From the NCBI GenBank assembly GCA_943788175.1, contig CALSPG010000005.1:320001-384000 (forward strand): DNA of 64,000 bases. The letters run 5' to 3'. This document shows, in pieces, positions 1 through 21,602 of this stretch. A program made the translations under genes and the position numbers. A model generated the notes under the pieces. It did no database searches. It was not told the DNA's origin and worked only from the letters and a program-made list of their open reading frames with translations. This stretch comes from an uncultured bacterium. Lineage in GTDB: Bacteria; Fidelibacterota; Marinisomatia; Marinisomatales; UBA1611. The first letter of the stretch is position 1; every line of letters starts with the position of its first letter.

Positions 1-1697
1 TGCCGATGCATTACAGCAATAAGAAATTAAGAATTGTTTCTCAGTCTAGTGCGACAGGAACACAATATCTTCAAGCTGTTGGGTGTGCTTTATCTAGAAA
101 ATTAGACAATTCAAAAGAAGTGGTATACGTCTCATCAGGCGAGGGGACTACTAGTCAAGGTGATTTCCATGAAGCTCTTAATTGGGCTGGGAGGGAAAAA
201 GCTCCTGTCATATTTCATATCCAAGATAATGAATATGCGATAAGTACCCACCGTTCAGAACAGACTGCGGGCTCGGTGTACTCACTGGTAAGTGGTTATG
301 AAAATTTATCAAAATATGAAGTAGATGGCACTAATTTCTTTGAATCACATCTTGCATTTAAACAAGCAGTTGAAAGGGCTAAAAGAGGAAAAGGCCCGTC
401 AGTCATTGTATCAAATGTGGTTAGGCTGCTGCCTCACTCAAGTTCTGATGACCAAAGAAAGTATAGAAGCGATAAAGCCTTGAAAAAAGACCTTGATCGT
501 GACCCTATTATCTTATTCAAGAAAAATTGTATTGATGAAGGTATTTTTTCATTAAAAGATGCAGAAAAAATTGAAGCAAAAGCAAAAGAACAAATTGCTT
601 TAGACGCATCTTGGGCTGAGCTACAAAGTCACCCAGATAAAAAAACAGCCCTGAGGTATGTTTTTAGCGAAGATACGATAAAATCGGAAACTAAATTAAC
701 AAAGATATCCGATAGTGTAGTTATAGTGGACGCAATTAACCACGCTCTTCATGAAGAAATGGAAAAAAATAATCGTATGGTCATTTTTGGACAAGATATT
801 GCTGATCCTAAGGGAGGTGTTTTTACGGCAACTAAAGGCCTTTCAACTAAATTTGGCAAAAAAAGAGTTTTTAACTCACCGTTAGCTGAGTCTAGCATCA
901 TTGGTACAGCGGTTGGGATGGCCGTCACTGGATATAAGCCTGTTGTTGAAATTCAGTTTGGAGATTATATATGGACGGCTATGATGCAGATTCGCAATGA
1001 AGTCTCTGTCATGAGGTACAGGTCAAACAACAATTGGAGTGCTCCCATAGTTATTAGAGTGCCGGTGGGTGGATATATTCATGGTGCATTGTGTCATAGT
1101 CAATCAATTGATGGGTATTTTATACACATGCCAGGTATTTACATAGCTTATCCTTCAAATGCTCGAGATGCTAAAGGATTATTGAAGATGGCTTGCAGAA
1201 TGAAAGATCCAGTAATATTCATGGAACACAAAGGATTATATCGTCAGCCCTACGCCTCTACAGAAGAACCTGGTAAAAACTATATTTTGCCGTTTGGTAA
1301 AGCTAGTTACATTTCTAAAGGGGCTCACATAACTTTAATATGTTGGGGGGCAATGGTTCAAAAAAGTTTAGATGCGATTCAAAGCCTCGAGTTGAGTGAA
1401 GATATTGTAGAAATTATTGATCTTCGAACCCTTAATCCCATTGATTATGATATGATCAAAGAATCAATTACCAAAACAGGTAAAGCACTAGTTGTCTATG
1501 AGGATAATATCACAAATGGTCCGGGTTCAGAAATATGTTCAATCATTGCAGATAAATATTTTGAGTATTTAGATGGTCCTGTTCGAAGGGTAGCTTCAAA
1601 AGATAGTCCAGTGCCATATAATTGGTTTTTAGAAGAAAATGTTTTAGTTCAAACTGAAGATATAGCAAGTGCTATCAAAGAATTGTTGGAGTATTAG
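1..1697 (+). CDS. Fused 2-oxoacid (probably branched-chain) dehydrogenase E1 alpha/beta, 5'-truncated by the window edge
   Basis: TPP motif GEG-x(n)-N (SSGEGTTSQG...DNEYA), HSSSDD, beta-domain FNSPLAES, EIQFGDY, HSQS; followed by E2 and lipA. Confidence 0.9.
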   Translation, partial: PMHYSNKKLRIVSQSSATGTQYLQAVGCALSRKLDNSKEVVYVSSGEGTTSQGDFHEALNWAGREKAPVIFHIQDNEYAISTHRSEQTAGSVYSLVSGYENLSKYEVDGTNFFESHLAFKQAVERAKRGKGPSVIVSNVVRLLPHSSSDDQRKYRSDKALKKDLDRDPIILFKKNCIDEGIFSLKDAEKIEAKAKEQIALDASWAELQSHPDKKTALRYVFSEDTIKSETKLTKISDSVVIVDAINHALHEEMEKNNRMVIFGQDIADPKGGVFTATKGLSTKFGKKRVFNSPLAESSIIGTAVGMAVTGYKPVVEIQFGDYIWTAMMQIRNEVSVMRYRSNNNWSAPIVIRVPVGGYIHGALCHSQSIDGYFIHMPGIYIAYPSNARDAKGLLKMACRMKDPVIFMEHKGLYRQPYASTEEPGKNYILPFGKASYISKGAHITLICWGAMVQKSLDAIQSLELSEDIVEIIDLRTLNPIDYDMIKESITKTGKALVVYEDNITNGPGSEICSIIADKYFEYLDGPVRRVASKDSPVPYNWFLEENVLVQTEDIASAIKELLEY

Positions 1698-2987
1698 ATG
1701 GTTATTGATGTAGTGATGCCTAAAATGGGTGAAAGTATTACTGAGGGTACGATACTTGAGTGGTATAAAAAAATTGGGGATGAAATTGAGCAAGATGAAA
1801 CATTGCTTGAGATAGGAACTGATAAAGTTGACTCTGAGATCCCATCTCCAAGCAGTGGTGTCATTACGATGATAATGGCAGAGCCGAATGATGTTGTAGA
1901 TGTTGGAGAAGTGATTGCCAGAATAGAAACAGATTCCAAGTCAGTAAATTTAGAAAAAAGTTCAGAAGTCCCCAAAGATCAAAAGCCTATTGAAAAGCCT
2001 GAAAAAGTAGTAAAAGAAAAAGATGTTCAAATTCAAAATGAACAAAAATCTTTTAATATATCAAGCTCAACTAAAGGGCCTATCCTTTCTCCGGCAGTCA
2101 CTAAATTGGCGAACCAAGAAGGTATTAGCTTTAGTGAACTGGCATTAATTAAGGGTACTGGGAAGTTAAATCGAATTACAAAAAAAGATTTAGAAATGTA
2201 CTTATCCTCTGGTAATAGATCGATCGACAAAAGTTCAATGCAATTGCCAAAAGAGTCTTCATTAAGTTTTGAATTTGCTTCAAACAGTAAAACAGATAAA
2301 CTAGATAATATGAGGAAAAGAATATCAGAGCATATGCGTTATAGTTTGAATACTTCTGCGCATGTACATATTATGAATGAAGTAGATATGACGGACATAG
2401 TTAATTTTGTCAAGAGAGAGGAGGCTTCTTTTCGCTCTAAAGAAGGGTTTAACCTTACTATAACACCATTTATAATTTTTTCATTAGCAAAAGTTTTAAA
2501 TGAAATGCCTGAATTAAATTCATCTCTTGATGGCGATTTAGTCATTCAACATCCACAAATAAATATGGGCATAGCTGTTTCAGTTGATGGTGGTTTAATG
2601 GTCCCTAGCATTAATAATTGTGGTGAGAAAAATTTGCTGGGTATATGTCGTGATTTAAATGCTATTGTGCAAAAAACTCGAGAGAGAGCTATTAATCCTG
2701 ATGATTTACAAGGCTCAACTTTTACCTTATCTAACTTTGGGGTATTTGGTGCGACAATAGGAACTCCTATCATAAACCAACCTAATGTTGGTATCTTAGG
2801 TACTGGGGTAATTAAAAAGCAACCTGTAGTAATAGAGAAAAATGATTTAGATGTTATAGCTATTAGGCAGATGATGATGCTTTCTCTGGGTTTTGACCAT
2901 CGATTAATTGATGGTGCAGGAGGAGCTTTATTTTTGTCAAAAATTAAAAATATTTTAGAAAATTTTAACTTTGAAAATATTCTTTAA
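1698..2987 (+). CDS. Dihydrolipoamide acyltransferase (E2)
   Basis: Lipoyl domain GTDKV, E3-binding GTGKLNRITKKD, catalytic FDHRLIDG. Confidence 0.95.
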   Translation: MVIDVVMPKMGESITEGTILEWYKKIGDEIEQDETLLEIGTDKVDSEIPSPSSGVITMIMAEPNDVVDVGEVIARIETDSKSVNLEKSSEVPKDQKPIEKPEKVVKEKDVQIQNEQKSFNISSSTKGPILSPAVTKLANQEGISFSELALIKGTGKLNRITKKDLEMYLSSGNRSIDKSSMQLPKESSLSFEFASNSKTDKLDNMRKRISEHMRYSLNTSAHVHIMNEVDMTDIVNFVKREEASFRSKEGFNLTITPFIIFSLAKVLNEMPELNSSLDGDLVIQHPQINMGIAVSVDGGLMVPSINNCGEKNLLGICRDLNAIVQKTRERAINPDDLQGSTFTLSNFGVFGATIGTPIINQPNVGILGTGVIKKQPVVIEKNDLDVIAIRQMMMLSLGFDHRLIDGAGGALFLSKIKNILENFNFENIL

Positions 2988-3850
2988 TGTCAGAATTAAT
3001 ACAAAAACCTCACAAACCAAAGATTAAGCTCCAAATAGGAGAGAATTATAAATTTGTCAATAATGTTGTTAAAAATTATAATTTAAATACTGTATGCGCT
3101 GAAGCCAATTGTCCAAATATATACGAGTGTTGGAATAGAGGAACAGCTACGGTTATGATACTTGGAGATACTTGCACAAGAGCTTGTGGATTTTGTGCTG
3201 TTAAAACTGGTAAACCATCTTGGGATGATCCATTAGAGCCATATAGGACTGCGATGGCAGTCAAAAAGATGGATTTAAATCATGTCGTTATTACTAGTGT
3301 AGACAGAGATGATATAAAAAATGATTATGGTTCATCAATTTGGGCTAAAACAATTGAAGAAATACATAAGAATGTTCCAGGGTGTACGGTTGAAGTCCTG
3401 ACACCTGATTTTCAAGGTCACAGTGCTTCATTGGAAAAAGTTTTTCGCGCTAATCCTGAAATATTTAGTCATAATGTAGAATGCGTTGAAAGAATAAGTA
3501 AAGAGGTAAGAACCCAATCTAATTGGCAAAGAAGTTTAAATGTGCTTAGAAGTTCGGCAAACTATGGATTACGAACAAAAACGGGTATTATGGTTGGTCT
3601 AGGTGAAACTTTTGATGAAGTTCTAAAAACAATGGAAGAAACATATTATGCTGGGGTCTCTATCTTTACAATTGGGCAGTATTTACAACCAACTGGAAAG
3701 CATCTTAAAGTACAGCGGTACGTCTCTGATACAGAGTTTAAAAATTATAAAAATTTTGGTTTGAAAATAGGCTTTGATGTTATCGAGTCTGGGCCTCTAG
3801 TTCGTAGCTCTTATCACGCAGATGAACAAGCTCGAATCATAAGAAGATAA
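2987..3850 (+). CDS. lipA: Lipoyl synthase
   Basis: CAEANCPNIYEC, radical SAM CTRACGFC, C-terminal RSSY. Confidence 0.97.
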   Translation: MSELIQKPHKPKIKLQIGENYKFVNNVVKNYNLNTVCAEANCPNIYECWNRGTATVMILGDTCTRACGFCAVKTGKPSWDDPLEPYRTAMAVKKMDLNHVVITSVDRDDIKNDYGSSIWAKTIEEIHKNVPGCTVEVLTPDFQGHSASLEKVFRANPEIFSHNVECVERISKEVRTQSNWQRSLNVLRSSANYGLRTKTGIMVGLGETFDEVLKTMEETYYAGVSIFTIGQYLQPTGKHLKVQRYVSDTEFKNYKNFGLKIGFDVIESGPLVRSSYHADEQARIIRR

Positions 3851-3945
3851 TTCGGAAAGCTCTTTCAGACAATATGATTATGTTTTATACGCCATAATTG
3901 CATAGTTAGTTATATTAAATGACTAAAATTAAATACATTATATCA

Positions 3946-3960
3946 TGGCATAATGATTGT
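3946..3960 (+). promoter_or_regulatory. Possible sigma54-like -24/-12 promoter upstream of lon
   Basis: TGGCAT-AATGA-TTGT resembles TGGCAC-N5-TTGC, with a mismatch at -12. Confidence 0.3.
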
Positions 3961-3991
3961 CAAATGATAGTAACAAAAATATAGGATTATC

Positions 3992-6397
3992 ATGGCTGAT
4001 AAATTATCAGAAAAAGACATCGAAAACATAAATATTGAAGGCTCCGAGGAGTATGCTGTTATGCCATTGCGTAATACGGTATTATTTCCCCAGCAGGTTA
4101 TTCCGATTTATATTGGAAGAGAAAAATCACTAAAACTCATATCTGACATTGAGCTTGAAAAGAAAAAATATATAATTGTTGTTGCGCAGGAAGATGGTTC
4201 AATCGAAGATCCAAATACTGAGGACCTCTACTCATATGGAACCTTAGCGACTGTTCTTAAGGTTTTTGCGATGCCTGATAATAGTAAATCAGCTATTGTT
4301 CAGGGTATCGCCCGTGTTAAAATTTTAGATTACTTGAGTAAAGAACCATACTTTAAAGCTGTTGCAAGTAAAGTAAATGACGATCCAATAGTAGATGAAT
4401 TAGAAATTGATGGTATTACTGAAAACTTTAGAAAATCTTTTTCAGACCTTATTAAAGTTGCTCCGAACCTAACGGAAGAACATACAGGCATGTTATCTAA
4501 TATAAAAAAGGCGAACAGATTAGTTGATCGAGCTATTTCTCTTATGACTTTATCGAACCAAGAGAAGCAAGAAATTCTTGAGGAAGTCAATATAAAAAGT
4601 AGATTAGAAAAAGCAAATTCGATTATTAATAGAGAGACACAAAGAATTAAGCTTGGCGAAGAGATTCAAACTGAAGTTCATGATGAAATTGCGAAAACTC
4701 AGAGAGAGTATTATCTCAGAGAGCAAATGAAAGCAATTCAAAAAGAACTCGGTGAAGACGAAGGGACAGTAGAAACTAAAGAATTAGAGGAGCGAATTAA
4801 AGCTGCGAAAATGCCAGAAGCTTCTGAATCTGTGGCTATGAAAGAATTAGATAGGTTGTCCCGAATTCCTACCCAGTCTCCTGAGTACAATGTTTCAAGA
4901 ACCTATATAGAATGGATTGTAGATCTCCCATGGAGTAAATCATCAGAGGATAGAGTAGATTTAGAAGAGGCCTTAAAAATTCTTGACCATGATCATTATG
5001 GATTAGGAAAAGTTAAAGATAGAATTATTGAATATTTAGCTGTTAGAAACTTAAAACAGAAAAGAAACCCGGATGGTAGTGTTAGAGGTCCTATATTATG
5101 TTTTGGTGGTCCTCCTGGAGTAGGTAAAACATCATTAGGTAAATCTATAGCTAGGGCAATGGGGAGAGAGTTTATAAGGTTATCTTTAGGTGGTGTAAGA
5201 GACGAAGCAGAAATTAGAGGGCATAGGAGAACTTATATTGGCGCTCTTCCAGGAAGAATAATTCAAAACATTAAAAAAGCAGGAACAAATAATCCCGTAT
5301 TTATGTTGGATGAAGTGGATAAATTAGGATCAGATTATAGGGGTGATCCATCCTCAGCGATGTTAGAAGTTCTAGACCCTGAGCAAAATCATTCTTTTAA
5401 TGATCACTATCTTGAGCTTGATTTTGATTTGAGTAAAGTTATGTTTATTGCGACTGCAAATAATTATGGGAATATTCCACCTGCTTTACGAGATAGAATG
5501 GAAATGCTAGAATTTTCAGGATATATTCAGGATGAAAAGCTTCAAATAGCAAAAAAGCATTTAATACCGAAACAGGTAAAAGAAAACGGACTTACTAAGT
5601 CAGAAGTATCAATGGATAATAACTCGATTAAGGAATTAATTAGTTCTTACACTAGAGAAGCAGGTGTTAGACAGCTCGAGAGGGAAATAGCAAATGTGTT
5701 GAGAAAAGTTGCTAGGGATATTGTTGAAGATAAAGAAAAAAATATAAAGGTAACTAAATCGAAAGTTCAAGACTATTTAGGAGCCTCTAAATTTTATTCT
5801 GATCTAGCAGAAAGAGCGACAGAACCAGGAGTCGTCACAGGTTTAGCTTGGACTGCTGCTGGGGGCGATATTCTCTTTATTGAGTCTTCAAAAATGAAGG
5901 GTAAGGGTAAGTTAACCCTGACAGGTCAATTAGGAGATGTAATGAAAGAGTCAGCAACTGCAGGCATGACATATGTTAGAGCGCATGCGAATGATTTTGG
6001 AATTGAGTCAAATTTTAACGAAGAACTTGATTTGCATGTCCATGTTCCAGCAGGAGCTATTCCGAAAGATGGTCCCTCAGCAGGTGTTAGCATGATAACA
6101 TCATTAGTCTCTCTTATAACTGGTGTCCCTGTTAAAAGCAAAGTGGCAATGACTGGTGAAATAACACTTAGAGGTAATGTCTTGCCGATTGGTGGGGTAA
6201 AAGAAAAAGTTACCGCTGCTCATAGGGCTGGTATTAAAGAGGTCATATTACCTTACTTAAATCAAAAAGACATTGAAGATGTACCTGAAAACGTATCTAA
6301 AGATATTAAATTTCATTTTGCGAAAGAAATCTGGGATGTTTTAAAGGTCGCATTGCCAAAGATTGCAAAGAACAGGAAAAATACTAAAGCTAAATAG
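3992..6397 (+). CDS. lon: ATP-dependent protease La
   Basis: LON N-domain, Walker A GPPGVGKTS, LDEVDK, catalytic PKDGPSAG. Confidence 0.98.
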   Translation: MADKLSEKDIENINIEGSEEYAVMPLRNTVLFPQQVIPIYIGREKSLKLISDIELEKKKYIIVVAQEDGSIEDPNTEDLYSYGTLATVLKVFAMPDNSKSAIVQGIARVKILDYLSKEPYFKAVASKVNDDPIVDELEIDGITENFRKSFSDLIKVAPNLTEEHTGMLSNIKKANRLVDRAISLMTLSNQEKQEILEEVNIKSRLEKANSIINRETQRIKLGEEIQTEVHDEIAKTQREYYLREQMKAIQKELGEDEGTVETKELEERIKAAKMPEASESVAMKELDRLSRIPTQSPEYNVSRTYIEWIVDLPWSKSSEDRVDLEEALKILDHDHYGLGKVKDRIIEYLAVRNLKQKRNPDGSVRGPILCFGGPPGVGKTSLGKSIARAMGREFIRLSLGGVRDEAEIRGHRRTYIGALPGRIIQNIKKAGTNNPVFMLDEVDKLGSDYRGDPSSAMLEVLDPEQNHSFNDHYLELDFDLSKVMFIATANNYGNIPPALRDRMEMLEFSGYIQDEKLQIAKKHLIPKQVKENGLTKSEVSMDNNSIKELISSYTREAGVRQLEREIANVLRKVARDIVEDKEKNIKVTKSKVQDYLGASKFYSDLAERATEPGVVTGLAWTAAGGDILFIESSKMKGKGKLTLTGQLGDVMKESATAGMTYVRAHANDFGIESNFNEELDLHVHVPAGAIPKDGPSAGVSMITSLVSLITGVPVKSKVAMTGEITLRGNVLPIGGVKEKVTAAHRAGIKEVILPYLNQKDIEDVPENVSKDIKFHFAKEIWDVLKVALPKIAKNRKNTKAK

Positions 6398-6428
6398 AGT
6401 AATATTTCTTAATATTATCGTACATATT

Positions 6429-6502
6429 GGGCGTTTAGCTCAGCTGGTCAGAGCGCTGCCCTTACAAGGCAGATGTCGGGAGTTCGAATCTCTCAACGCC
6501 CA
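6429..6502 (+). tRNA. tRNA-Val(TAC), integration target
   Basis: GGGCGTT/AACGCCC acceptor stem, anticodon arm CTGCC-CTTACAA-GGCAG, GTTCGAATC T-loop. Confidence 0.96.
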
Positions 6503-6688
6503 CTTCTCAGAAACCCTCGTTTATTGACGGGGGTTTTTGTTTTTATATAAGTCTGTCAAAGTTATCATTCCTTATCATTGTATGACATTTATAATAATTG
6601 GACACATATTTGGAGGACACAACCTAATTCAATTCTTATCTCAACCAAAGTAGGGGGGCATACCCCGTTTGATAGGGGGGGTAGGTAT
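6450..6688 (+). repeat. Left copy (attL region) of an imperfect ~240 bp direct repeat
   Basis: Matches 16416-16650; exact core 6457-6504 = 16423-16470. Confidence 0.93.
6511..6538 (+). terminator. Intrinsic terminator after tRNA-Val (second copy after attR)
   Basis: AAACCCTCGT-TTATTG-ACGGGGGTTTTT hairpin with T-run. Confidence 0.75.
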
Positions 6689-6739
6689 GTGTATATAAGA
6701 CGCTCACACATTGAAGGGTAATTTTTTGTAGGTTTAGAT

Positions 6740-6892
6740 ATGGAAATAATTAAGAAATTCTTTGATGGTATTGCTAAGTTTAATTTGAGGAAGTTGAAAG
6801 ATGCTTTTCCATCAATAGCAGATAAGATTGATGTAAGACTAACTCCACCCGATGATGATGCATATTTTACTAACCTTTTAAAGGTCATATAA
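6740..6892 (+). pseudogene. 50-codon ORF homologous to the C-terminus of the element integrase
   Basis: AKFNLRKLKDAFPSIADKIDVRLTPPDDDAYFTNLLKVI* aligns with AKFNLRKLRDDFPSLKERINLRLTPPSEDSYFTTLLNAI* ending at 16316. Confidence 0.85.
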
Positions 6893-7070
6893 GGAATCCT
6901 TTTTACTACATACTCGGTTTTAAAGAGGGGACGTACTTACCCATATGATAGTTAAGTGATTGGGTATTTATATAACCAAAATATTCTACAAATTTAATTC
7001 TATCAATATTAAGTTTTCCCTCTGTTTAAACCTTTTTAATTAACATACCTATCATAAATATTTTTAGAAA

Positions 7071-8993
7071 ATGAATGAAGACATTAAACTTGCTATAAAA
7101 ATTCGTTCCATTGAGGAAAATTTTCTTGAAATGTTTTCCGAGGGTTTATTAAATGGTACAGTTCATACATGCATAGGACAAGAGCTGTCAGGCGTAGGGA
7201 TATCAAAATTTTTAAATAGAGACGATTTTGTTTTTAGTAACCATAGGTGCCATGGTCATTATATTTCATTTACTAAAAAATATAAAAACTTAATAGATGA
7301 ACTAATGGGGAAAGAATCTGGAGTATGTGGTGGCATTGGTGGTAGTCAGCATATAGCGAGTGATAATTTCTTTTCTAATGGGCCTCAGGGGTCTTTGGCA
7401 CCTGTTGCAGTTGGCGTAGCTGAAGGTTTAAAACGCAAAAAAAATAACTCTGTTTCTGTTTGCTTCATCGGTGATGGCACAATGGGTGAAGGTATAATCT
7501 ATGAATCTATGAACTTGATGTCCCTTTATGAATTGCCGATGATTTTGGTATGCGAAAATAACATGTATGCACAATCAACTAGTATAAAAAGTAATTTATC
7601 GGGCGATATCAATTTAAGAGCATCTTCATTTGGAATAAAAGTTTATGAACTTAATACTTGGGATTATGAGGGTCTAATAAAATCCTCTCAAGAGGCAATA
7701 TCAAACGCAAGAAAAAATATCCCATCTTTCATTCATATTAATACTTACAGGTTAAAGGCTCATTCAAAAGGAGATGATAACAGAGATGGAAATGAAATTA
7801 AAGAATTCGAAAAAAAGATTTAATAAATAATTTTATCTTAAACAATGATGAATACGCTAAATATTATAAAGAAATAAAAGATAAAATTAGAGCTTATTCT
7901 AATTCAGTTAGTGAAAATTCTCAAATGGACAAAAATAAATATGTGGACGGTGAGAAGCTTAAACTATATAAAAAAATATTCATTATGTGATGTGAGAATT
8001 GAAAAAAAGCAATCAGATTTAATTAATAATTATTTTCATGAAAGCATAAATGATGATAAAAATATTTTATTGATTGGTGAAGATATTAAAGATCCTTATG
8101 GCGGAGCTTTTAAAATAACAAAAGGGTTATCTGATAGATATAATGAAAATGTTATTTCCACCCCTATTTCTGAAGCTGCAATAGTAGGCATGGGTATTGG
8201 ACTATCCATTCTAGGCTTTAAGCCTTACGTAGAAATCATGTTTGGAGACTTTATCACATATGCGTTTGATCAAATAGTTTCTAATGCTTCTAAGTTTTAT
8301 CATATGTACAATAAAAAGTACAATGTCCCTCTAGTTATAAGGACTCCCATGGGTGGAAATAGAGGCTATGGGCCAACACATTCACAAAGTATTGAAAAAT
8401 TCTTCATTGGCGTAAATAACATTCAAATAGTCGCGCTTAATACATTATTGAAGCCAAAAGAAATATATGAATCAATTAAAAATTTTAAACATCTTACACT
8501 TTTAATCGAAAATAAAGTTGATTATGGAAGATTAATCAATTATTCGCCTAAATCTATTAATTATGAATTCAAAAAATCCGACTCTGATTATCCGATAATT
8601 ACTGGAGAGCCTGTCAGTGCTAAAGCAAAAATAAGTGTTATTACTTATGGTGGTTCTATCCATCCTGTATTAGAAAGCATAGACGATATATTTTTTGAGT
8701 TTGAAGAATTTATTAAAGTAATTGTAATTACTAAACTGTATCCACTCGACATGGAAGAATTATCATTACTAACAAAGGATTCTTATTTTATAATTACGGT
8801 AGAAGAGAGTAATATTGAAGGTGGGTTTGGTTCAGAAATAATCTCTGGTCTTTCAGAAATAGAAAATGAAAAACAAAAAAAATACTTAAGGATTGGTTCG
8901 GAAAATGTACCTATACCATCAACAAAAAAACTTGAAAGTGAGATTTTAGTTTCTAAAGATTTAATTGTCCGAAAAATGAAAGAAATGTTATGA
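7071..8993 (+). CDS. Cargo fused TPP-dependent E1 alpha/beta (dehydrogenase/transketolase-like), split by two indels in A7 runs (ORFs 7071-7823 and 7911-8993)
   Basis: HTCIGQE, HRCHGH, GDG...ENN, HSKGDD in the first ORF; TPISEA, EIMFGDF, GPTHSQS in the second; both ORFs share a frame and the linker is open in another frame between A-runs 7810-7816 and 7970-7976. Confidence 0.85.
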
Positions 8994-10189
8994 GCGTAAT
9001 TGAAACTTTGAAAATCCCTCAAGATAATGTAAACGATAATGATGTGACTATATCAAGCATTTTCATTGAAAAGAATGATTATGTTGATGTAAATACTCTT
9101 GTTTTAGATTATGAGACATCAAAAGCAAATTTTGAATTATTTATTACAAAGTCAGGCTATGTGCAGCTTAATTGCAAAGAGGGGGAGATTGTTAAAATTG
9201 GACAAACTATTGGTATTGTTTCAGATGACAAAGATTACGTCCATCAATTTGAAGAAAATATAAATGAGAAAGAATTTTCTAAACAAACATTCAGCAAAAA
9301 AGCAGAAATTTTAATTAATGAAATGTCAATTGATAAGAGTGTCTTTAAGTATGAACAATTTGTCACTGAGGAAATTGTTAGAAATTTTTTAAATGATTCA
9401 AATGACATTATACCAAGTGGTGACATAATTAAAATTTCTCCACGAAAATATTTTGAGATAAAAAACTTAACTAATGTTAGTAGGAACGGGCTCGTTTCTA
9501 CAATTGAAAAAACAATCAATAGTTCTATAGTTGATACGGACTCAATTTATGAAAAAAATGAGTTTAAAGGGTCATTATCTATTTTGCTCATTAAAGTAAT
9601 ATCAGACTTACTTAAAATAGAAAAATATAAACATTTAAATAGTTATTGCGACGGGGAAAATATCTATATTAATAATGATGTAAATTTTGGTCTAGCGCTC
9701 AATTTAGGTTCTGGTCTAAAAATAGGAGTTATAAAAAAATCTAATTCTTTATCAATTAATGAAATAGAATCAAAAACAATACAGTTAATAGATAAATACA
9801 TTGATGATAAACTTCAAAAAGAAGATATTGAGGATTTTTCAATTGTATTGACTGATTTAACAGAAAAAGAGATTGATAACTTTACACCTCTCATTACTTC
9901 TTCAAATACAATAATGATTGGTTTATGTGGAGTAAAAGGTTCAACCCAAAGATTAATAATCTCATTTGATCACAGAGTTTCAGATGGATTAGAAATTGCA
10001 AATTTTATGAATGATATTATATCAACTTTAAAAAATGAATATCCCAATTTTATTGATGAAAATAGTTGTTCATCGTGTTTAAAAACTATTGAAGAAGATA
10101 AAGAGCTTGATACTCCGGGTCTAATAAGAATACTAGGTCATGATAAAACATTAAAATTCATTTGTAGAAATTGTTTAGAAGGATTTTAA
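8990..10189 (+). CDS. Cargo E2-like lipoyl/acyltransferase with a C-terminal Cys4 extension
   Basis: Lipoyl-Lys motif ETSKA, catalytic FDHRVSDG, tail CSSC...CRNC. Confidence 0.85.
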   Translation: MSVIETLKIPQDNVNDNDVTISSIFIEKNDYVDVNTLVLDYETSKANFELFITKSGYVQLNCKEGEIVKIGQTIGIVSDDKDYVHQFEENINEKEFSKQTFSKKAEILINEMSIDKSVFKYEQFVTEEIVRNFLNDSNDIIPSGDIIKISPRKYFEIKNLTNVSRNGLVSTIEKTINSSIVDTDSIYEKNEFKGSLSILLIKVISDLLKIEKYKHLNSYCDGENIYINNDVNFGLALNLGSGLKIGVIKKSNSLSINEIESKTIQLIDKYIDDKLQKEDIEDFSIVLTDLTEKEIDNFTPLITSSNTIMIGLCGVKGSTQRLIISFDHRVSDGLEIANFMNDIISTLKNEYPNFIDENSCSSCLKTIEEDKELDTPGLIRILGHDKTLKFICRNCLEGF

Positions 10190-10191
10190 AC

Positions 10192-10413
10192 ATGAGCGAT
10201 CTAATAATAAAAAAAATAGTTTCAGTATTTCTTAAAACTAAACCGAATAAAATTACAAATGATACCATAATTGACACCTCGGTAATACAGGGGAGTGTGT
10301 TGTTTCATAGAATGATTGCACGTATAAATGATTATTGTAATATTGAAATTGAAAATTATGATAAAATTCATACTTTCCAAGATTTATTAGATCAAATTAA
10401 ATTAAAGCAATGA
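10192..10413 (+). CDS. Acyl carrier protein-like
   Basis: 73 aa, ACP-like pattern (ITNDT..., Ser in QGSV, TFQDL), directly upstream of a PPTase. Confidence 0.65.
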   Translation: MSDLIIKKIVSVFLKTKPNKITNDTIIDTSVIQGSVLFHRMIARINDYCNIEIENYDKIHTFQDLLDQIKLKQ

Positions 10414-10417
10414 GTTT

Positions 10418-10738
10418 TTGTTAAGATTTGGTGTTGATATTATTGAAATTGATTCATTCCCATCTTTTATTAAAGGTAAGGATGATTCTTTCTTTTTGTA
10501 TAATTATACAAAAAGCGAAATAGAATTTGCTAAAAACAAACTCAACCCGGATATTGAGTTTGTTAAAATGTTTTCAATTAAAGAGTCTCTTGTCAAGTCA
10601 GACAATTTATTAGTAGGAAAGAATTTTAATAAAATAGAATTGTCATTTGTTGGGGATTGTTATATTTATAATGATTACAAGATAACTACATCAACTGCGA
10701 ACAATAATTGCATATCATTTGTTTTAAGCACTACGTAA
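10418..10738 (+). CDS. AcpS-type 4'-phosphopantetheinyl transferase
   Basis: GVDII and FSIKESLVK motifs, 106 aa. Confidence 0.8.
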   Translation: MLRFGVDIIEIDSFPSFIKGKDDSFFLYNYTKSEIEFAKNKLNPDIEFVKMFSIKESLVKSDNLLVGKNFNKIELSFVGDCYIYNDYKITTSTANNNCISFVLSTT

Positions 10739-10873
10739 TCTTTTGTAGGCATAATAATTGGTTTAATGTTATGGAGGTGTAAGTAGGGTATGCTTTAAAA
10801 CGGAGGATGAACAGATGAACACTTATTACATATACTACCTACACTATTGAGATGTATGGATTTATATATAAAC

Positions 10874-11773
10874 CTAATTAAGGAGTTCGGGGTAGTCATC
10901 AATATCATCTAAACTATCACTTAAATATTTGGCATCATCGTTACGAAGTAAGTGAGGTGCATATAGAACTAATAGATTAAGAATAGTTTTATCAGTACAT
11001 CCATAGTGTTCAGATAATTTCTTCTTATTGATGTTTCCATTCTTTTTAAATCTGATCGAGTCTACAACCTTTTCTAATCTTCCACTTTCTAAGTCTTCTT
11101 GAAATGCAACTTCGTATCTTTTATTTTTGTATTTCTTTTTTAACTCACGCTCTTTTAATAAGGCTTGTGTTGTTACCCTTAATTGATTTTCTAAAACACT
11201 TGCAGAAGTATGTACCACGGGTTTTTCTGTTTCAGATAAATTTGGTAAAGTATTTGCATCAAGTAAGGTAGGGGCAAAGTCTATCATAACACCCTTTACT
11301 TGAAACCAATTTTCAAATTCTAATTTAGGTTTATAAAGAATATGTTCATCAGATATGAACTTGCTTCTGCCGTCATTAAAACTTTTAGGTAACATATTAA
11401 TTATCCAAGTGTATATCATTTTATTAAAGGCTATACAAAAGTTCTTATTATCAAGATTCAAACCTTTGATGTAAGAATATTGATTATCAAGAGTAACTTG
11501 ATGAACTAATTTTTCTCCTTGCTTATATTTCCAAGTAGTTGGCTGATTGAAATAAACATTAAAAGAATACAATGGGAACTCATATTCTTCACCATAACCC
11601 CATTTCTGATAATTCGCTTCGATACCTAATTCATTTTGTTGCTCATTATAGAACTGATTGAAGTCTTGAATCTTTTTATTGATTCTTGTTAAAACTCTTA
11701 ATCTGTCTTTCTCATCTCCCCTTATCCATTCATCGGTATAGGGTTTTGTTATCTCTCCTATCAGTAAACTCAA
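10874..11773 (-). CDS. Hypothetical protein with a possible C-terminal HTH (candidate element regulator)
   Basis: 299 aa ORF; KKKLSEHYGCTDKTILNLL is HTH-like; divergent from xis. Confidence 0.55.
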   Translation of the reverse strand: MSLLIGEITKPYTDEWIRGDEKDRLRVLTRINKKIQDFNQFYNEQQNELGIEANYQKWGYGEEYEFPLYSFNVYFNQPTTWKYKQGEKLVHQVTLDNQYSYIKGLNLDNKNFCIAFNKMIYTWIINMLPKSFNDGRSKFISDEHILYKPKLEFENWFQVKGVMIDFAPTLLDANTLPNLSETEKPVVHTSASVLENQLRVTTQALLKERELKKKYKNKRYEVAFQEDLESGRLEKVVDSIRFKKNGNINKKKLSEHYGCTDKTILNLLVLYAPHLLRNDDAKYLSDSLDDIDDYPELLN

Positions 11774-11949
11774 CCTTGTTTGTTATATACCCCACCCCAA
11801 GCAAAATTAATAGGGAGTAGTTCTTTTAGTTTATCATTATCGATATAATCTGAATTAATCTTATTAGCCTCACACATTTTGTAGATCATTTCTATCAATC
11901 CTATTTGTTCATAGGCATCTTGTAATGTAGGTGTTTTCTTTTCTTCCAT
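11770..11949 (-). CDS. Small hypothetical protein (59 aa)
   Basis: ATG at 11949; stop overlaps the start of the 299 aa gene. Confidence 0.5.
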   Translation of the reverse strand: MEEKKTPTLQDAYEQIGLIEMIYKMCEANKINSDYIDNDKLKELLPINFAWGGVYNKQG

Positions 11950-11958
11950 ATTTCTTTT

Positions 11959-11992
11959 TTCGGAGTAATTCCGAAATAATTCGGATTTCGGA
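11959..11992. promoter_or_regulatory. Array of four TTCGGA/TCCGAA hexamers in the divergent control region
   Basis: Copies at 11959, 11970 (inverted), 11980, 11987. Confidence 0.55.
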
Positions 11993-12066
11993 TGGCGCGA
12001 ATTTATGATGTAATAGGGTATGGCACAACTAATCAAGGTTGGTCATAAACCAATAGGAAATGAATA

Positions 12067-12285
12067 ATGGAAATAAGAATAGTTGAATTATTAAATGAAA
12101 TAAGAACTCTAATACTTGGCAAGGTAAATGAGAGATGGTTGAATCTCAGAGATGTATCTGAATACACATCTGTTTCAGAAAGTACAATTCGTAGGGCAAT
12201 CAAAAAAGGTGTCCTTAAATCATCAAACAAAACGGGAAGATTACTTTTTAAAGTATCTGATGTTGATAGGTGGCTGAACTCATAA
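12067..12285 (+). CDS. Excisionase/AlpA-like HTH DNA-binding protein
   Basis: WLNLRDVSEYTSVSESTIRRAIKKG...LLFKVSDVDRWL, HTH_17-like pattern. Confidence 0.88.
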   Translation: MEIRIVELLNEIRTLILGKVNERWLNLRDVSEYTSVSESTIRRAIKKGVLKSSNKTGRLLFKVSDVDRWLNS

Positions 12286-14206
12286 TGGATTACACCCATA
12301 TCTTTGAAAGAGACTTCAAATAGAAGTTAATAAGCGAAGTGGGATTCAATGGCAAGGTAGATGTCCATTACCAAGCCACGAAGATAGAAAAGCATCCTTT
12401 TCTTGGAATATAGATAACGGACTATGGAAATGTCACGGGTGCTTTGAATCGGGGAATGCTTATCAATTAGCAGAAATATTAGGTATAGCAAACCCATCCC
12501 AATATATAGAAAAAGAAACGGGGGGATATAGGAACAACCCCCCTCCAATACAGAAAGTTAATGTAATGAGTAGTGAAGAACTCGATGCACTTAAAAAAAA
12601 GTATCACTCAAATCTAACTGAACAAGATACCACATTTACCAATCCATATACAATACACGGAAGACGGGATGATGGGAATTTAGTTTTCTTTCTACCCGAT
12701 GCAATTAAGCATCACAAGTCTCAACCATATTGGGAGGGCAACAATAAGAAGTGTCAAATATTTGGTAGTGAATATCTTGCTGAGATAGATGCGAATGATA
12801 CTCTATACATATTCGAGGGAGAAAAAGAAGTATGTTACTCTCCATACAAGGGAATCAGTTTCACGGCTGGTGCTGGAAATGTTCCCGAAGACTTATCTCA
12901 ATTATACGCCTATAAAGATATTTGCATCATTCCCGATAATGATGATGCTGGATATAAGGGTGCTGATAAATGGGCAAAGGTCTGTTCAAGTAAATGGGGT
13001 GCATCCGTAAGGATTGCACAATGGGATGAGACACTCCCAAAAGGTTACGATGTGTATGATGATTATGTCCGTTCAACAAATGGAGATGAAGATTACATAT
13101 TTGATGAAACCGATAAGGCAATCAGCAAAGCAATCCCCTTTAAAGAAAATAACCACAAAACTGAAATTGGAGGTTTCAATACAATGGCAATAAACAACTA
13201 CATACAAACATATCAAGATGAAGAAGTAAGTCATATCATAGATGGATTATTAGTTAAAGGAGGTGTGACAATCCTTGCTGGTTCTGATGGAGTTGGTAAG
13301 TCTTGGTTAGGTTTACAAATGGGATTCTGTATCTCAAATGGAAATGAGTTCTTAGGTTGGGAAACAAAGAAGATGCCCGTTCTGCTTATTCAATTTGAAT
13401 TAGGTACGGCTCAACTGAAAGATAGATTACAGATACTATCTAAATCCTATGATATGAATACTGATTTCAATGTGGTAGACCTATCAGATGAAGACCTCAT
13501 CTTTACAGATGCTTGGGATAAGATAGAACAGACTATTGATAATCAATCTTTTACGGATGGAGTTATCATTGTAGATAATCTATATGCAAGTACTGATAAG
13601 GATGTATCTCAAAATCACGAACTCAAACCTATCTTAAAAAAGATAAGAAAGTTGTGTGTGGAGTATGACAATGCTTTTGTCTTGATTGCTCATCACAATA
13701 AGAACGAAAAAGATGATGAGCCGATCCTGACAAAAAAACTGATAACGGGAGGGAAGACACTTACAAATTTCCCCAACAATGTTATTCAAGTTGGCAGTAG
13801 CAGTTTAGGTAATGACATCTTTAGAGGCAAGATTACAAAGATAAGAGATAAAGGTAGTGATTTAATAAACATTCCTTTTATCCTCAACTTTGACCAAGAC
13901 ACTTGTGTTTTTTCAAGGGGTGTAATCATTGTATCTGAGATACTTCATTGCCAACCCATTAAAAAGAGATGGGAATATGAATTGCTTATAGACTTCCTTG
14001 CCTATCAATCTAATGAGGCGTTTACTCGTTCAAGGTTATGGCAATTCCTATCTACAAAAGACGGATGGGAAAAGACTCCATCAAATCAAACTAAGGTTAC
14101 AAGGTTTCTAAGTAGAATGAAAACTTGGGGATTCATTATAGAGCGTGAATACAATCTGTATGAATTAAGCCTTGAAGATATAAGGAGGCTGGAAGAAGAA
14201 AGATGA
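12285..14206 (+). CDS. Primase-helicase (CHC2 Zn finger + Toprim + RecA/AAA_25-like helicase), with one indel near 12310
   Basis: Frame upstream of 12566 reads CPLPSHED...WKCHGC; Toprim EGEKE and DNDDAG; Walker A GSDGVGKS, Walker B IIVDN; ATG overlaps the xis stop (TAATG). Confidence 0.85.
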
Positions 14207-14225
14207 TTTACGGGGGGTGAATATA

Positions 14226-14294
14226 GTGTTTAAGTGTTCATCTTAGGTGCTTATGTATTCCCCTCTCAAATGAACAGATAAACAGACTTAACCA
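14226..14294. repeat. Inverted iteron-like repeats (candidate replication origin)
   Basis: GTGTTTAAGTGTTCATC facing ATGAACAGATAAACAG just after the helicase stop; same motif at 10806-10825. Confidence 0.55.
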
Positions 14295-14698
14295 TACATA
14301 GCAAGAGGATTTAAAGATAATGGAATATAAAGTAATGGACTTTCAAAAATATACAGACTACTTAGGTGATAGGTGGGATGATACTATTGAAATGGGAAAG
14401 TTTGATACCTATGAAATGGCATTGGAATCGAATGAGTATCATTGAGCAAGACCTTGCAAACGGGTAAGAATGGATTGCCTAAAGATAGTACTTTAGAACT
14501 AATTCAATTCGTAACAGAGTCACATCATACGGGTGGTAATAAGTCTTAATGAAGATGGCTGGATTGTGGTACTACACAAACCCGATATTGTTACAGATGT
14601 TACAAATGTTACAGATGGCTCAGAAGTAGGTACTCAAGCACACGCTGAACAGGAGGTAAACTAGGGCTATCTCTCACTCAGAACAGAGAGACATCGAC

Positions 14699-15058
14699 TT
14701 GTCAAAACTTGACATTGAAGATGATATTTTCCCCCCTAAAAAAGGTGCAGATGAGGATAGTAACTCCCCCAATTTTGGCAGAGGTCAGCATCCTAATTCA
14801 AAGAAGAATCTGAAGCCATTATGAGAAAGGTGTTAGTGGTAATCCATCGGGTAAACCAAAAAAGGTAGCACAATTAAAAGAGGTCTTAGATTGGTGGGGT
14901 AGGCTTAACTGAATATGATAATTGGTCTTGGGATAAATACACCAATAGAGCAAATGGTAGTCAAAGGTATATGGAAAAGAGCAACCTCATGGTAATAGAC
15001 AAGACTTAGATATTTGCTATCACTTGGATTACTTGATTCAGACAAGTTTAAAGACTAA
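14699..15058 (+). pseudogene. Frameshifted DUF5681/terminase-small-subunit-like gene
   Basis: Reads HPNSKKNLKP/YEKGVSGNPSGKPKK across a 1-nt shift, matching the NLKPFKKGQSGNPxGRP motif. Confidence 0.6.
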
Positions 15059-15200
15059 TTTAGGAACGCTTAAATCAACATGTTAAATATACCTAAATAC
15101 AATTCCCCCTATGAGATGTGGTCAGCAGTAATGCCCCAAACGATTTCAACATGTTATCGTAAGCCATCTTTGGGGGGATGTAGGTAATAGGAGTCAGCAT

Positions 15201-16316
15201 ATGGCTACATATATAAAACAAAGAAAACGTCAGTACTCATCCCGTATTCAATGGAGAGACTGAGAATGGTAATAAGAGAGAACGAAAAATACCTCTTAAA
15301 ACTTCTTCTAAATCTGTTGCAGTAGTCAGAAACAATGAAGTAACGAAAGTTGAAGATACTATTATCGATGGAGATAATTGGTCTTTTGCTTGGATGAATG
15401 ATGATGGTAAAAGTTAAACTAATTAGATTATCTATTAGCGAGGCTTATGAAGAATATAGGATTGTCCAAAACATAGATGGAGTGAGAGCGTCTACGCTCG
15501 ATCGAGTTGATAACTCTATGAAGACACTATATAAAGTCTTTGGAGAGAACTATCCAATAGCATCATTAACATACTCGCATATAGAACAATTCAAAGAGTA
15601 TTGGCACGGAACACATCAACCAACTACAATGAATATTAATCTATCAAAGATTAAAGCGTTTCATAATTGGTGTCTTAAAAAAAGATATACTATAAAAGAT
15701 GTAGAGTTTAAGATGGTTAAGGAAGATGAAAAGCCTCCACAATATCTAACAGATGCTGAGTTTAAAAGCATAATGAAATGTGATATAATAGATGACCATT
15801 TCAAGAAAGCATTTGTATTCTATTTGTATACGGGTTGTAGAAAAACAGAACCATTTATTGCAGACTTAAATGGTAATTGGCTTACAATCAAATCAACAGA
15901 TGCTAAGTCTCACAGAACTCGTGATATTGAATTAAATGAAGTAACTAAGGGCATAGTTCAAGATATGAGAGATAGGTATCATTACTATATGGATGAATAT
16001 GCACAGAAACCAAGAAATGTGATTATGAACTATGGTAAGCAGTTCAAAAAGGCTTGTAGATACTTAGGTATCAAGGGCAAGACCTTACATTCATTGAGAC
16101 ATACTTATGCAGTTAGACGCTGGGCAATCACGGGAGACATTAAGATGGTATCTCAAGAGATTGGTCATAGTCTCAGTAGTGATGACAGAGAAGTATGCTA
16201 AGTTCAATCTTAGAAAGTTAAGAGATGATTTCCCCTCATTAAAAGAGCGTATCAATCTTAGACTTACTCCACCAAGTGAAGACTCATATTTTACTACGCT
16301 TTTAAATGCTATTTAG
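15201..16316 (+). CDS. Tyrosine integrase, three apparent 1-nt frameshifts (~15260, ~15410, ~16170)
   Basis: RBS AGGAG, ATG 15201; TGCRKTE, HSLRHTYA, IGHS/SVVMTEKY with the catalytic Tyr in the next frame; adjacent to attR. Confidence 0.9.
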
Positions 16317-16415
16317 AGGCATAAAATGGCAAAGAGGACACGTTTTGGAGGATACACCTAATAGACCTAAAATGCTAAGTGTAGTAATATATGTAGTTAG
16401 GAGTTAAAAACGCTG

Positions 16416-16650
16416 AGAGCGTTGCCCTTACAAGGCAGATGTCGGGAGTTCGAATCTCTCAACGCCCACTCCTCAGAAACCCTCGTTTATTGACGGGGGT
16501 TTTTGTTTTTCTACAAGTCTGTCAAAGTCGTCATTCCTTATCATTGTATGACATTTATAATAGGAACTTTGGAGGCTACCAAGCCCTAATTCAATTACTT
16601 ATTTCAACCAAAGTAGGGGGGCATACCCCGTTTGATAGGTCGGTAGGTAT
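16416..16650 (+). repeat. Right copy (attR: 3' part of tRNA-Val plus ~180 bp)
   Basis: Matches 6450-6688; lacks the tRNA 5' end. Confidence 0.93.
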
Positions 16651-17673: not shown

Positions 17674-18087
17674 ATGATGTTAAATTCAATAAATATTTCG
17701 ATAAAAAATATTAAAGTAGATAGTCTTGGCGCTTTGGTAAGCGGCTTATGCATGTTGCATTGTCTTGCAACGCCAATCTTTTTTATTGCTTCAGCTTGTT
17801 CAGCAGCATGTTGTAACTTTGCTCCAACTTGGTGGCAATCATTAGATTATATTTTTCTAGTTATTTCTCTTTTTGCTGTAATCCAAGCATCTAGAAATTC
17901 AAATAGTTCATTGGTTCCTAGGGGGCTACTAGCTAGTTGGTTAGGGTTAGGTTTTTTTATATTGAACGCTAAGTTTGGTTGGATTAGCGTTCATCAGAAT
18001 ATTAAGTTTATTCCTGCGTTTCTTCTTATTGGATTTCATCTATACAATATGAAGTACTGTCAATGTGAGAGCAATGAATGTTGCTAA
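17674..18087 (+). CDS. MerC-domain membrane protein
   Basis: DSLGALVSGLCMLHCLATP MerC signature, 4 hydrophobic segments, Cys-rich tail. Confidence 0.82.
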   Translation: MMLNSINISIKNIKVDSLGALVSGLCMLHCLATPIFFIASACSAACCNFAPTWWQSLDYIFLVISLFAVIQASRNSNSSLVPRGLLASWLGLGFFILNAKFGWISVHQNIKFIPAFLLIGFHLYNMKYCQCESNECC

Positions 18088-18121
18088 ATTATTTAATGTT
18101 TTTTTAATGAGAGGATGAAGA

Positions 18122-18370
18122 ATGAAAGAAAATGAATTTCCACTTCTAAAGATTACAAATATTGATTGGGATCCAGATCATGAAGAATTTGAAAAATTAC
18201 CCAAAAAATTAGAGCTTAAATGGGATAAAAAAAATTGGACCATCGATGATGTTTCAAACTGGTTAAGTCTTGAATTTGACTGGGTTTTTAACAGTCTTAA
18301 TATTAATCAAGTTGGAATTTGGGAGAATGGTGGTTGTAGTTGCTGCGCTGGCGGATGTAGTTGCTGCTAA
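18122..18370 (+). CDS. Small acidic protein with a tandem GGCSCC tail
   Basis: RBS GAGG; ends GGCSCCAGGCSCC. Confidence 0.7.
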   Translation: MKENEFPLLKITNIDWDPDHEEFEKLPKKLELKWDKKNWTIDDVSNWLSLEFDWVFNSLNINQVGIWENGGCSCCAGGCSCC

Positions 18371-21254: not shown

Positions 21255-21602
21255 TTAGTTAAAGGATGAGGGGGGTGCCCTTGAGGGGATATTTAATTGG
21301 TTTAAAAGATTTTTGAAAACATGCTCATCAAAATAATACGAATTTTTTGTTTTTACATAGGTATTGATTTTATATGTGTCATTATATATTTTCTGGTTAT
21401 TCTGATTTCTTGTACACTTATCGCAATCAGCCTTTAAAACATGGTGATCTGATGAGTTACATTCAGGGTTACAGATACTGTATCCTTCTTCTTTTGTGTG
21501 GTCATGCTCAGAAATATGAAGACTACCAGAAAGGAGTAGAAATGATAACGTAATTTGGCAAAGTCCTTGCAAGATGTTTTTTATGTTATTTTTCTTATGC
21601 AT
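21255..21602 (-). CDS. His/Cys-rich leader protein ending in RAPP, copy B
   Basis: Hydrophobic N-terminus, HDH-GYSIC-x3-C-x4-HH-x5-CDKC, C-terminal SRAPPSSFN. Confidence 0.8.
   Translation of the reverse strand: MHKKNNIKNILQGLCQITLSFLLLSGSLHISEHDHTKEEGYSICNPECNSSDHHVLKADCDKCTRNQNNQKIYNDTYKINTYVKTKNSYYFDEHVFKNLLNQLNIPSRAPPSSFN

Follow-up and report, generated by a model that had tools for sequence, protein, structure and literature searches.

A satellite-like, cargo-carrying integrative element in a tRNA-Val gene of an uncultured bacterium, and its marine relatives

Phage-inducible chromosomal islands (PICIs), both SaPIs and those of Gram-negative hosts, are flanked by att repeats, carry accessory genes and encode a small terminase of their own that redirects packaging; in satellites that redirect the terminase of a helper phage, a small-terminase-like (TerS-like) gene is found without a large terminase. 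Other described systems include (i) the VEIMEs (integrative mobile elements that are encapsidated in virions), marine elements with an integrase, an AlpA/excisionase, a primase/helicase and TerS homologues, lacking a capsid gene and found as concatemers in virions, of which 2,000 have been reported and eight map to Flavobacteria, in a paper whose main text uses neither the word tRNA nor the word cargo (Eppley et al. 2022, PMC9618062); (ii) the tycheposons of Prochlorococcus, which, in the account of the preprint, use several tRNA genes, leave partial tRNAs, tandem arrays and relics, and carry environmentally relevant cargo (10.1101/2020.12.28.424599); (iii) the PICMIs (minimalist chromosomal islands inducible by phages) of Vibrionaceae, outlined as small marine satellites whose gene content is reduced, which lack capsid-remodelling genes and which are packaged as concatemers (PMC10803314); and (iv) a Flavobacteriales element with an unannotated RitB-like recombinase (PMC11876622). 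The kind is already known from VEIMEs, PICI-like elements and tycheposons, and a further member is described here in a stretch of 64,000 nucleotides (nt) from an uncultured bacterium, hereafter the window (assembly GCA_943788175.1, contig CALSPG010000005.1, positions 320,001 to 384,000 of the forward strand). It had been predicted, from the letters of the window, to be a satellite-like element in a tRNA-Val gene carrying metabolic rather than defence cargo.

The element is bounded by a tRNA-derived repeat. The intact tRNA-Val(TAC) gene occupies 6429-6503 on the + strand (ARAGORN), and its 3' 54 nt (6450-6503), the attL core, recur at 16416-16469 (+) as a partial tRNA-Val, the attR; the 26-nt 3' end of the gene has two exact matches in the window versus zero expected from 100 shuffles. 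The predicted duplication of the tRNA 3' part is thus present and longer than described, given that 6450-6596 aligns with 16416-16562 at 96% identity and that the repeat includes the tRNA terminator hairpin and about 190 nt more, the second copy spanning 16416-16650. The start-to-start spacing of the repeats, 9966 bp, agrees with the predicted size of about 10 kb. Following the tRNA, the left arm (R-ext; 6504-6744, +) comprises the tRNA-type terminator hairpin, a conserved 42-nt hairpin block and a 14-mer shared with sibling elements; its second copy (16470-16650, +) was, in our reading, left by an element that occupied the tRNA-Val site earlier, of which it would be the left end. The 42-nt block (6635-6676 and 16598-16639), a G-rich/C-rich hairpin conserved at 98% between both arms, may be a candidate protein-binding or packaging site. 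A possible third copy of the repeat near 21344 is a 19-nt chance match.

The repeats enclose a cargo operon together with a core of five genes: (i) p358, a candidate repressor with a helix-turn-helix (HTH)-like C-terminal region (10874-11949, - strand); (ii) xis, encoding an excisionase-type HTH_17 protein of 72 amino acids (aa) (12067-12285, +; HTH_17 E 4e-11); (iii) a CHC2 zinc finger-Toprim-AAA_25 primase-helicase, 640 aa in siblings (12286-14206, +; AAA_25 E 4.1e-27); (iv) a DUF5681 (TerS-like) gene, 243-257 aa in siblings (14320-15053, +); and (v) a tyrosine integrase, 368-371 aa in siblings (15201-16316, +; PHROG 1, E 4.8e-28). The sibling copy of xis matches TIGR01764 'excise' (E 3.8e-9), and the Phage_AlpA model on the xis protein gives only E 0.11. 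The CHC2 finger sits in the open frame upstream of the called, first canonical primase start; homologues of the primase carry PF01807 and PF13481, and its helicase part is an AAA_25 domain of the RepA/DnaB type. An intact sibling integrase of 371 aa contains the HxxR...GH...Y catalytic residues, and the 3' end of the window integrase faces attR, the gene ending at 16316, 100 nt before it. The xis/primase operon on the + strand is divergent from p358 on the - strand, the 358-aa protein being a candidate repressor; the model of p358 is too poor for fold assignment (pLDDT 55), and the protein atlas gave nothing usable. Family searches of the window element and the intact siblings returned no match to capsid, portal, tail, lysis, relaxase or coupling-protein families. 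The integrase, the divergent HTH-like/xis pair, the CHC2-Toprim-helicase and the lack of capsid and tail genes were all named in the original prediction, and each is borne out by these matches.

The open primase frame, used as a query, recovers 77 relatives in the protein collection, the closest of 640 aa at 97% identity. As a single query the primase finds no relatives in genome or viral contigs; an alignment of 33 primase relatives retrieves 80 metagenome loci, two genome loci and the best 80 IMG/VR loci. The primase is accompanied by at least one of xis, DUF5681 gene and integrase in 41 of the 80 metagenome loci and by at least two in 25, all four modules being present, in constant order, in 13; it stands alone in 39. 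Six metagenome contigs are close siblings (primase identity 88-99%), and the core order is attP, cargo slot, p353-358 (-), xis, primase-helicase, DUF5681 protein, integrase, attP. Sibling elements, a search for which in related genomes had been proposed as a check, are found in marine metagenomes, intact at 6-7.5 kb with the same core and different cargo: L048 (6125 nt) has a complete core and almost no cargo, L046, with a core 97% identical, has two unrelated open reading frames (ORFs) in place of the window cargo, and L050 has a cation-efflux (CDF)/HMA metal exporter in the cargo position.

Two relatives display junctions of the attP type. L045 (7569 nt, 99% primase identity) is collinear with 11636-16650 of the window and circularly permuted relative to it: its integrase is followed by a single partial tRNA-Val with the arm, three small ORFs and the C-terminal part of p358, the N-terminal part of which is found at the contig start. 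L045 has no terminal overlap, and its junction is as expected of an excised circle or a tandem pair. L093 (6710 nt), one of the 13 four-module loci, is circularly permuted and has an exact terminal overlap of 38 nt; with a primase frame running through the junction, it therefore represents a circular, or tandem, molecule of 6.7 kb. That the window copy is an element moved by conjugation, or what is left of a full prophage, is highly improbable: mobilisable islands and prophages can likewise combine an integrase with primase-helicase modules, and 2 of the 80 viral loci pair a distant primase relative with an integrase, whereas 6-7.5 kb already makes a complete sibling, the circular relative measures 6.7 kb, and relaxase, coupling-protein, capsid, portal, tail and lysis families were not matched in the family searches described above.

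The integration sites of the family were compared, for 14 loci with an integrase and sequence after it, with the tRNAs of the window's own genome. In nine, a tRNA 3' end is matched over 37-54 nt at 94-100% identity within about 115 nt after the integrase, disclosing as targets tRNA-Val (L045, L048), tRNA-Asp (L054), tRNA-Pro (L059, L094, L113), tRNA-Lys (L063, L093) and tRNA-Gly (L126); two others have matches of just 17-22 nt, and three, with 14-104 nt available, have none. No complete tRNA was found in 19 loci scanned with ARAGORN. In L045, L063 and L093, siblings that include users of other tRNA genes, the tRNA part is followed by the 14-mer of the left arm, which is also present in L091 and, in congeneric genomes, at sites linked to tRNA-Val or to an integrase; the arm is therefore an element-borne cis sequence. 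By these sequence comparisons the family is a coherent, widespread marine group of small tRNA-integrating elements with a cargo slot, and a literature search that combined phage satellites, flavobacterial hosts, integrase and primase found no published description of it. Of the predicted satellite family, the discrete integrative element, its membership of a real and widespread marine family and a satellite-typical gene set hold.

The element is not fixed in relatives. The primase was not found in any of the eight same-genus genomes (63-95% completeness) and occurs in one family-level relative of the host at 34% identity; with eight other species genomes of the genus available for comparison, the lineage is not very poorly sampled, contrary to what had been supposed. 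In the congeners, the tRNA-Val arm is found in tandem repeats with different cassettes between the copies, including (i) a carbamoyltransferase with SxtJ-like and GDSL proteins, (ii) a TonB-dependent receptor, and (iii) an MBOAT with its partner; several contigs end at the repeat. Three other genera have a cold-shock gene no more than 63 nt after tRNA-Val, with neither arm nor integrase, and the synteny past this gene does not match the right flank of the window. Since the cold-shock gene is inverted compared with that of the window, and the genes beyond it map to another contig of the window's own genome, these loci represent an unoccupied tRNA-Val and not a clean empty site.

Contigs from public runs (X1 to X4) stop at the repeat, record 1 of X1 ending at 6486 and record 8 beginning at 16616, and a joint in X4 from 16630 to 6677 is ambiguous because both repeats are alike. 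Taken as depth and not as copy number, flank-identical contigs stand at 13.7-13.8 versus 3.5-6.2 in the interior in X1, and at 17-19.6 versus 3.1-5.6 in X2, hinting that some cells lack the element.

The proposed packaging function turns on the DUF5681 gene, which had been called a TerS-like remnant. An intact sibling protein (243-257 aa) matches DUF5681 at E 1.4e-7 and 32.4 bits, against a Pfam cut-off of 27.5, and in more distant family members the protein consists of a DUF5681 domain of 105-125 aa alone. A scan of IMG/VR with a DUF5681 alignment returns 80 viral loci, of which 45, picked by eye for the broadest domain coverage, were examined. An ORF of at least 200 aa starts no more than 1.5 kb downstream of the DUF5681 ORF in 39 of the 45, usually overlapping or abutting this ORF of 98-136 aa, and 28 of those 39 downstream ORFs match large-terminase families (E <= 1e-5). 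The DUF5681 protein occupies the small-terminase position in uncultured phages, and the TerS-like designation has contextual support from this placement upstream of the large terminase; 'remnant', on the other hand, is probably an assembly artefact. In the element, the gene after DUF5681 is the integrase and a large terminase is lacking, a layout analogous to that of terminase-redirecting satellites. The one published mention of DUF5681 that a full-text search turned up is a bare listing of the domain within a phage proteome.

Taken together, we regard it as rather likely that tRNA-Val(TAC) harbours a satellite-like element, about 10 kb long, that integrates, replicates itself and is packaged by a helper phage. 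The tyrosine integrase would recombine an attP mimicking the tRNA 3' 52-54 nt with the chromosomal gene, regenerating the tRNA and leaving the partial copy at the far end, and excision would be directed by the excisionase-type HTH_17 protein. The CHC2-Toprim-AAA_25 primase-helicase would replicate the circle, and the small-terminase-like DUF5681 protein would recruit the helper's large terminase, leading element DNA into helper capsids. The divergent p358, with its HTH-like C-terminus, would act as a candidate repressor, and the slot between attP and p358 would hold interchangeable cargo, predicted here to be an E1/E2-carrier protein-phosphopantetheinyl transferase module that loads an acyl group onto the carrier protein. 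Dependence on a helper phage is, we infer, the best-supported mechanism.

It is rather unlikely, in our judgement, that the element is instead an autonomous cargo shuttle resembling tycheposons, integrating, excising and replicating on its own, independent of phages and spread by vesicles or DNA uptake, in which the DUF5681 protein has another DNA-binding role. The cargo slot, the targeting of tRNA genes, the tandem cassettes between repeats and the relics of integrases that the congeners carry at this tRNA match the island dynamics of tycheposons, most of which lack packaging genes in the preprint's account (10.1101/2020.12.28.424599), and neither the best 80 IMG/VR loci nor deposited phage records provide virion evidence. 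Against such a shuttle, the DUF5681 gene belongs to the conserved core, all 13 four-module loci having it, its phage homologues stand in the small-terminase position, and the nearest outside relatives of the primase are those of phages, four of which, with genomes of 34-38 kb, encode primases at 38-40% identity.

Several observations weigh against the helper-packaged satellite itself: (i) no helper phage was identified, and the public-run contigs contain no attP or empty-site junction for the window copy; (ii) no family member is found among the best 80 IMG/VR matches to the primase or DUF5681 query; (iii) none of 50,697 deposited phage records matches the DUF5681 protein, and the primase likewise finds no match among deposited phage records; (iv) PF18932/DUF5681 is matched in none of the four complete primase-bearing phages, weak evidence given that the control genomes are silent too; (v) the model of the DUF5681 protein (pLDDT 62) finds nothing in the PDB and is too poor for fold assignment, and the match to uncultured-phage DUF5681 proteins is weak (E 0.04); and (vi) four of the five core genes are frameshifted as assembled.

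The last point bears on whether the window copy is truly decayed and immobile, with real frameshifts and with the cargo alone useful to the host. When aligned by tblastn with the intact sibling proteins, p358 falls into three frames, the DUF5681 gene into three and the integrase into four pieces; the primase lacks its first 12 codons, one letter being missing in the A-run at about 12318, and the stretch between primase and integrase (14206-15200) reads as broken. Ranked by the share covered by ORFs of 120 aa or more, the core bins fall into roughly the bottom 1% of the genome (0.45 versus a median of 0.94). The locus has, moreover, a history of decay, displayed by an integrase relic of 50 codons (6740-6892, +) in which the C-terminal 39 residues of a second and related integrase survive, with 64% aa and 73% nt identity to the C-terminus of the true one (nt compared with 16196-16315).

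Decay was accordingly the initial reading of the frameshifts, and it was dropped since the public contigs, the sibling indels, E1 and the primase cluster contradict it. Substitution-free public contigs differ from the window by gaps only: record 5 of X1 covers 11391-12044 with zero substitutions and two gaps, at both p358 shifts, and record 11 of X2 covers 7819-8226 with zero substitutions and one gap. The extra letters of the window at 10794, 14819, 14900 and 16172 are missing from every X1 contig and from most X2-X4 contigs. Compared with L046 and L045, the coding sequence has ten single-letter indels, nine of them insertions in the window and at least five of them in short single-base runs, and E1 of the cargo is affected alike, at A-runs. 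In the 90% cluster of the primase, 12 of 17 members have 640 aa, and the sole 546-aa form is that of the window. X1 may be the source sample, which makes it no independent support for the biology yet the right control for assembly error. The frameshifts are probably consensus errors of the assembly, and a decayed relic is an unlikely explanation of the window copy. More generally, an element possibly present in part of a population may be assembled with many false frameshifts and be misread as a relic.

The cargo consists of five genes on the + strand: E1 alpha and E1 beta of the thiamine pyrophosphate-dependent 2-oxoacid dehydrogenase type (7071-8993), E2, an acyltransferase that has a DHRxxDG motif, contains a lipoyl domain and ends in a CxxC...CxxC tail (8990-10189), a 73-aa carrier-protein-like ORF with a weak acyl carrier protein match below the cut-off (10192-10413), and an ACPS-type 4'-phosphopantetheinyl transferase (PPTase; 10418-10738). 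E1 reads as 250 aa and 360 aa, the linker lying out of frame, between two A-runs; read with this linker it aligns with the E1 of a congener, a single fusion of 640 aa. Homologues at 98%, 88% and 58% identity show E2 to be full length; it belongs to a clade without the E3-binding domain.

Cargo DNA is found in one congener only (G007), at another locus, where the operon has 67% nt identity and lies within a glycan cluster comprising in sequence a glycosyltransferase, the fused E1, E2, an 80-aa ORF, the PPTase, a DltB-like MBOAT (TIGR04091, 1.5e-45), an unknown gene, sulfotransferases, a methyltransferase and a glycosyltransferase. On contig C2 (L210) of G007, the E1-E2-carrier-PPTase-MBOAT operon plus the 326-aa unknown spans 1282-7255 of this glycosyltransferase/sulfotransferase cluster. 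The G007 operon resembles a surface acylation system of the Dlt kind in which a 2-oxoacid dehydrogenase, in place of a ligase, does the loading. The window cargo ends after the PPTase, and an MBOAT of either congener type is absent from its own genome by tblastn. The carrier protein would receive from the module an acyl group, probably acetyl derived from a 2-oxoacid, and by analogy with Dlt would feed the MBOAT-mediated acylation of a surface polymer. Of the predicted metabolic rather than defence cargo, the second half agrees with the lack of any PADLOC defence match, and the first is better replaced by cell-surface acylation, which is more likely because the congener operon stands in a glycan cluster beside a DltB-like MBOAT.

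Other tRNA genes of the same genome show related features. A second island of the same kind is located at tRNA-Pro(TGG) (C7:407050-408682 and C8:5275-14706), with partial tRNA 3' ends at C7:408651 and at C8:8369, 9927, 12350 and 14675, and C8:5275-8243 holds an integrase (33% identity) and an xis-like gene (54%). Another integrase accompanied by xis is found at C2:40249-42350, the integrase match having one internal TAA. An 87% copy of the distal part of the left arm lies at C7:276432-276550, just after tRNA-Lys(TTT), tRNA-Lys being the target of L063 and L093. An 80% copy of the tRNA-Val 3' end and terminator is present at C8:27504-27608, and the genes that follow tRNA-Val in the three other genera map to C8:73800-86000; the C8 copy and the displaced genes suggest rearrangement between tRNA islands. 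In addition, C6:8676-8767 carries a candidate tRNA-SeC(TCA) call by ARAGORN, with low cover by long ORFs, and beyond the island in the window, a MerC-family membrane protein and, after it, an ORF of 82 aa containing 21-nt tandem repeats (18328-18367) are encoded at 17674-18370, in a low-GC stretch.

A further-reaching proposal, possible though doubtful at this stage, is that the family, in Bacteroidota, joins a terminase-hijacking satellite and a cargo shuttle, two roles that the tycheposon preprint reports as separate in Prochlorococcus, retargets among at least five tRNA genes by integrase/attP swap and ferries surface-modification genes, with the DUF5681 protein as packaging specificity factor. 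If true, a phage parasite would itself rewrite the surface seen by phages. The family would also provide a concrete vehicle, with a defined core, attP and cargo slot, for the flexible islands beside tRNA genes in marine Flavobacteria-type genomes, and it offers a testable function, that of a small terminase, for DUF5681.

Compared with the described systems, the window element stands at different distances. It lacks matches to Psu, Sid, Delta and the P4 alpha-type primase with its D5/SF3 helicase, the helicase being AAA_25, and so differs from P4-like satellites. With PICIs it shares an integrase and att repeats, an excisionase-type HTH protein before the replication module (AlpA-like in PICIs), a primase (primase-replicase in PICIs), a TerS-like gene without a large terminase, and the absence of structural and lysis genes; it differs by having no detectable sequence relation to them, another regulator layout and no capsid-remodelling genes. 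The PICMIs belong to another host family, and their likeness rests on the published outline rather than on a gene-by-gene comparison (PMC10803314), whereas the Flavobacteriales element, as far as its outline goes, seems different from the window family (PMC11876622). VEIMEs resemble the window family as small, marine, integrative elements with a tyrosine integrase, an AlpA/excisionase-type regulator, a primase/helicase, TerS homologues and no major capsid gene; they are defined by virion concatemers, whereas the window family is known from contigs, and the two are compared by description (PMC9618062). Tycheposons, as presented in the preprint, share the full tRNA at the proximal end and the partial tRNA at the distal end, the integration and replication modules, the tandem relics and the cargo; nevertheless, their host belongs to another phylum, and they require an inward-facing integrase, whereas the window integrase points outward. 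Finally, the PICI-like tycheposons in that account were never seen with extra cargo (10.1101/2020.12.28.424599), whereas in the window element a TerS-like gene and cargo co-occur.

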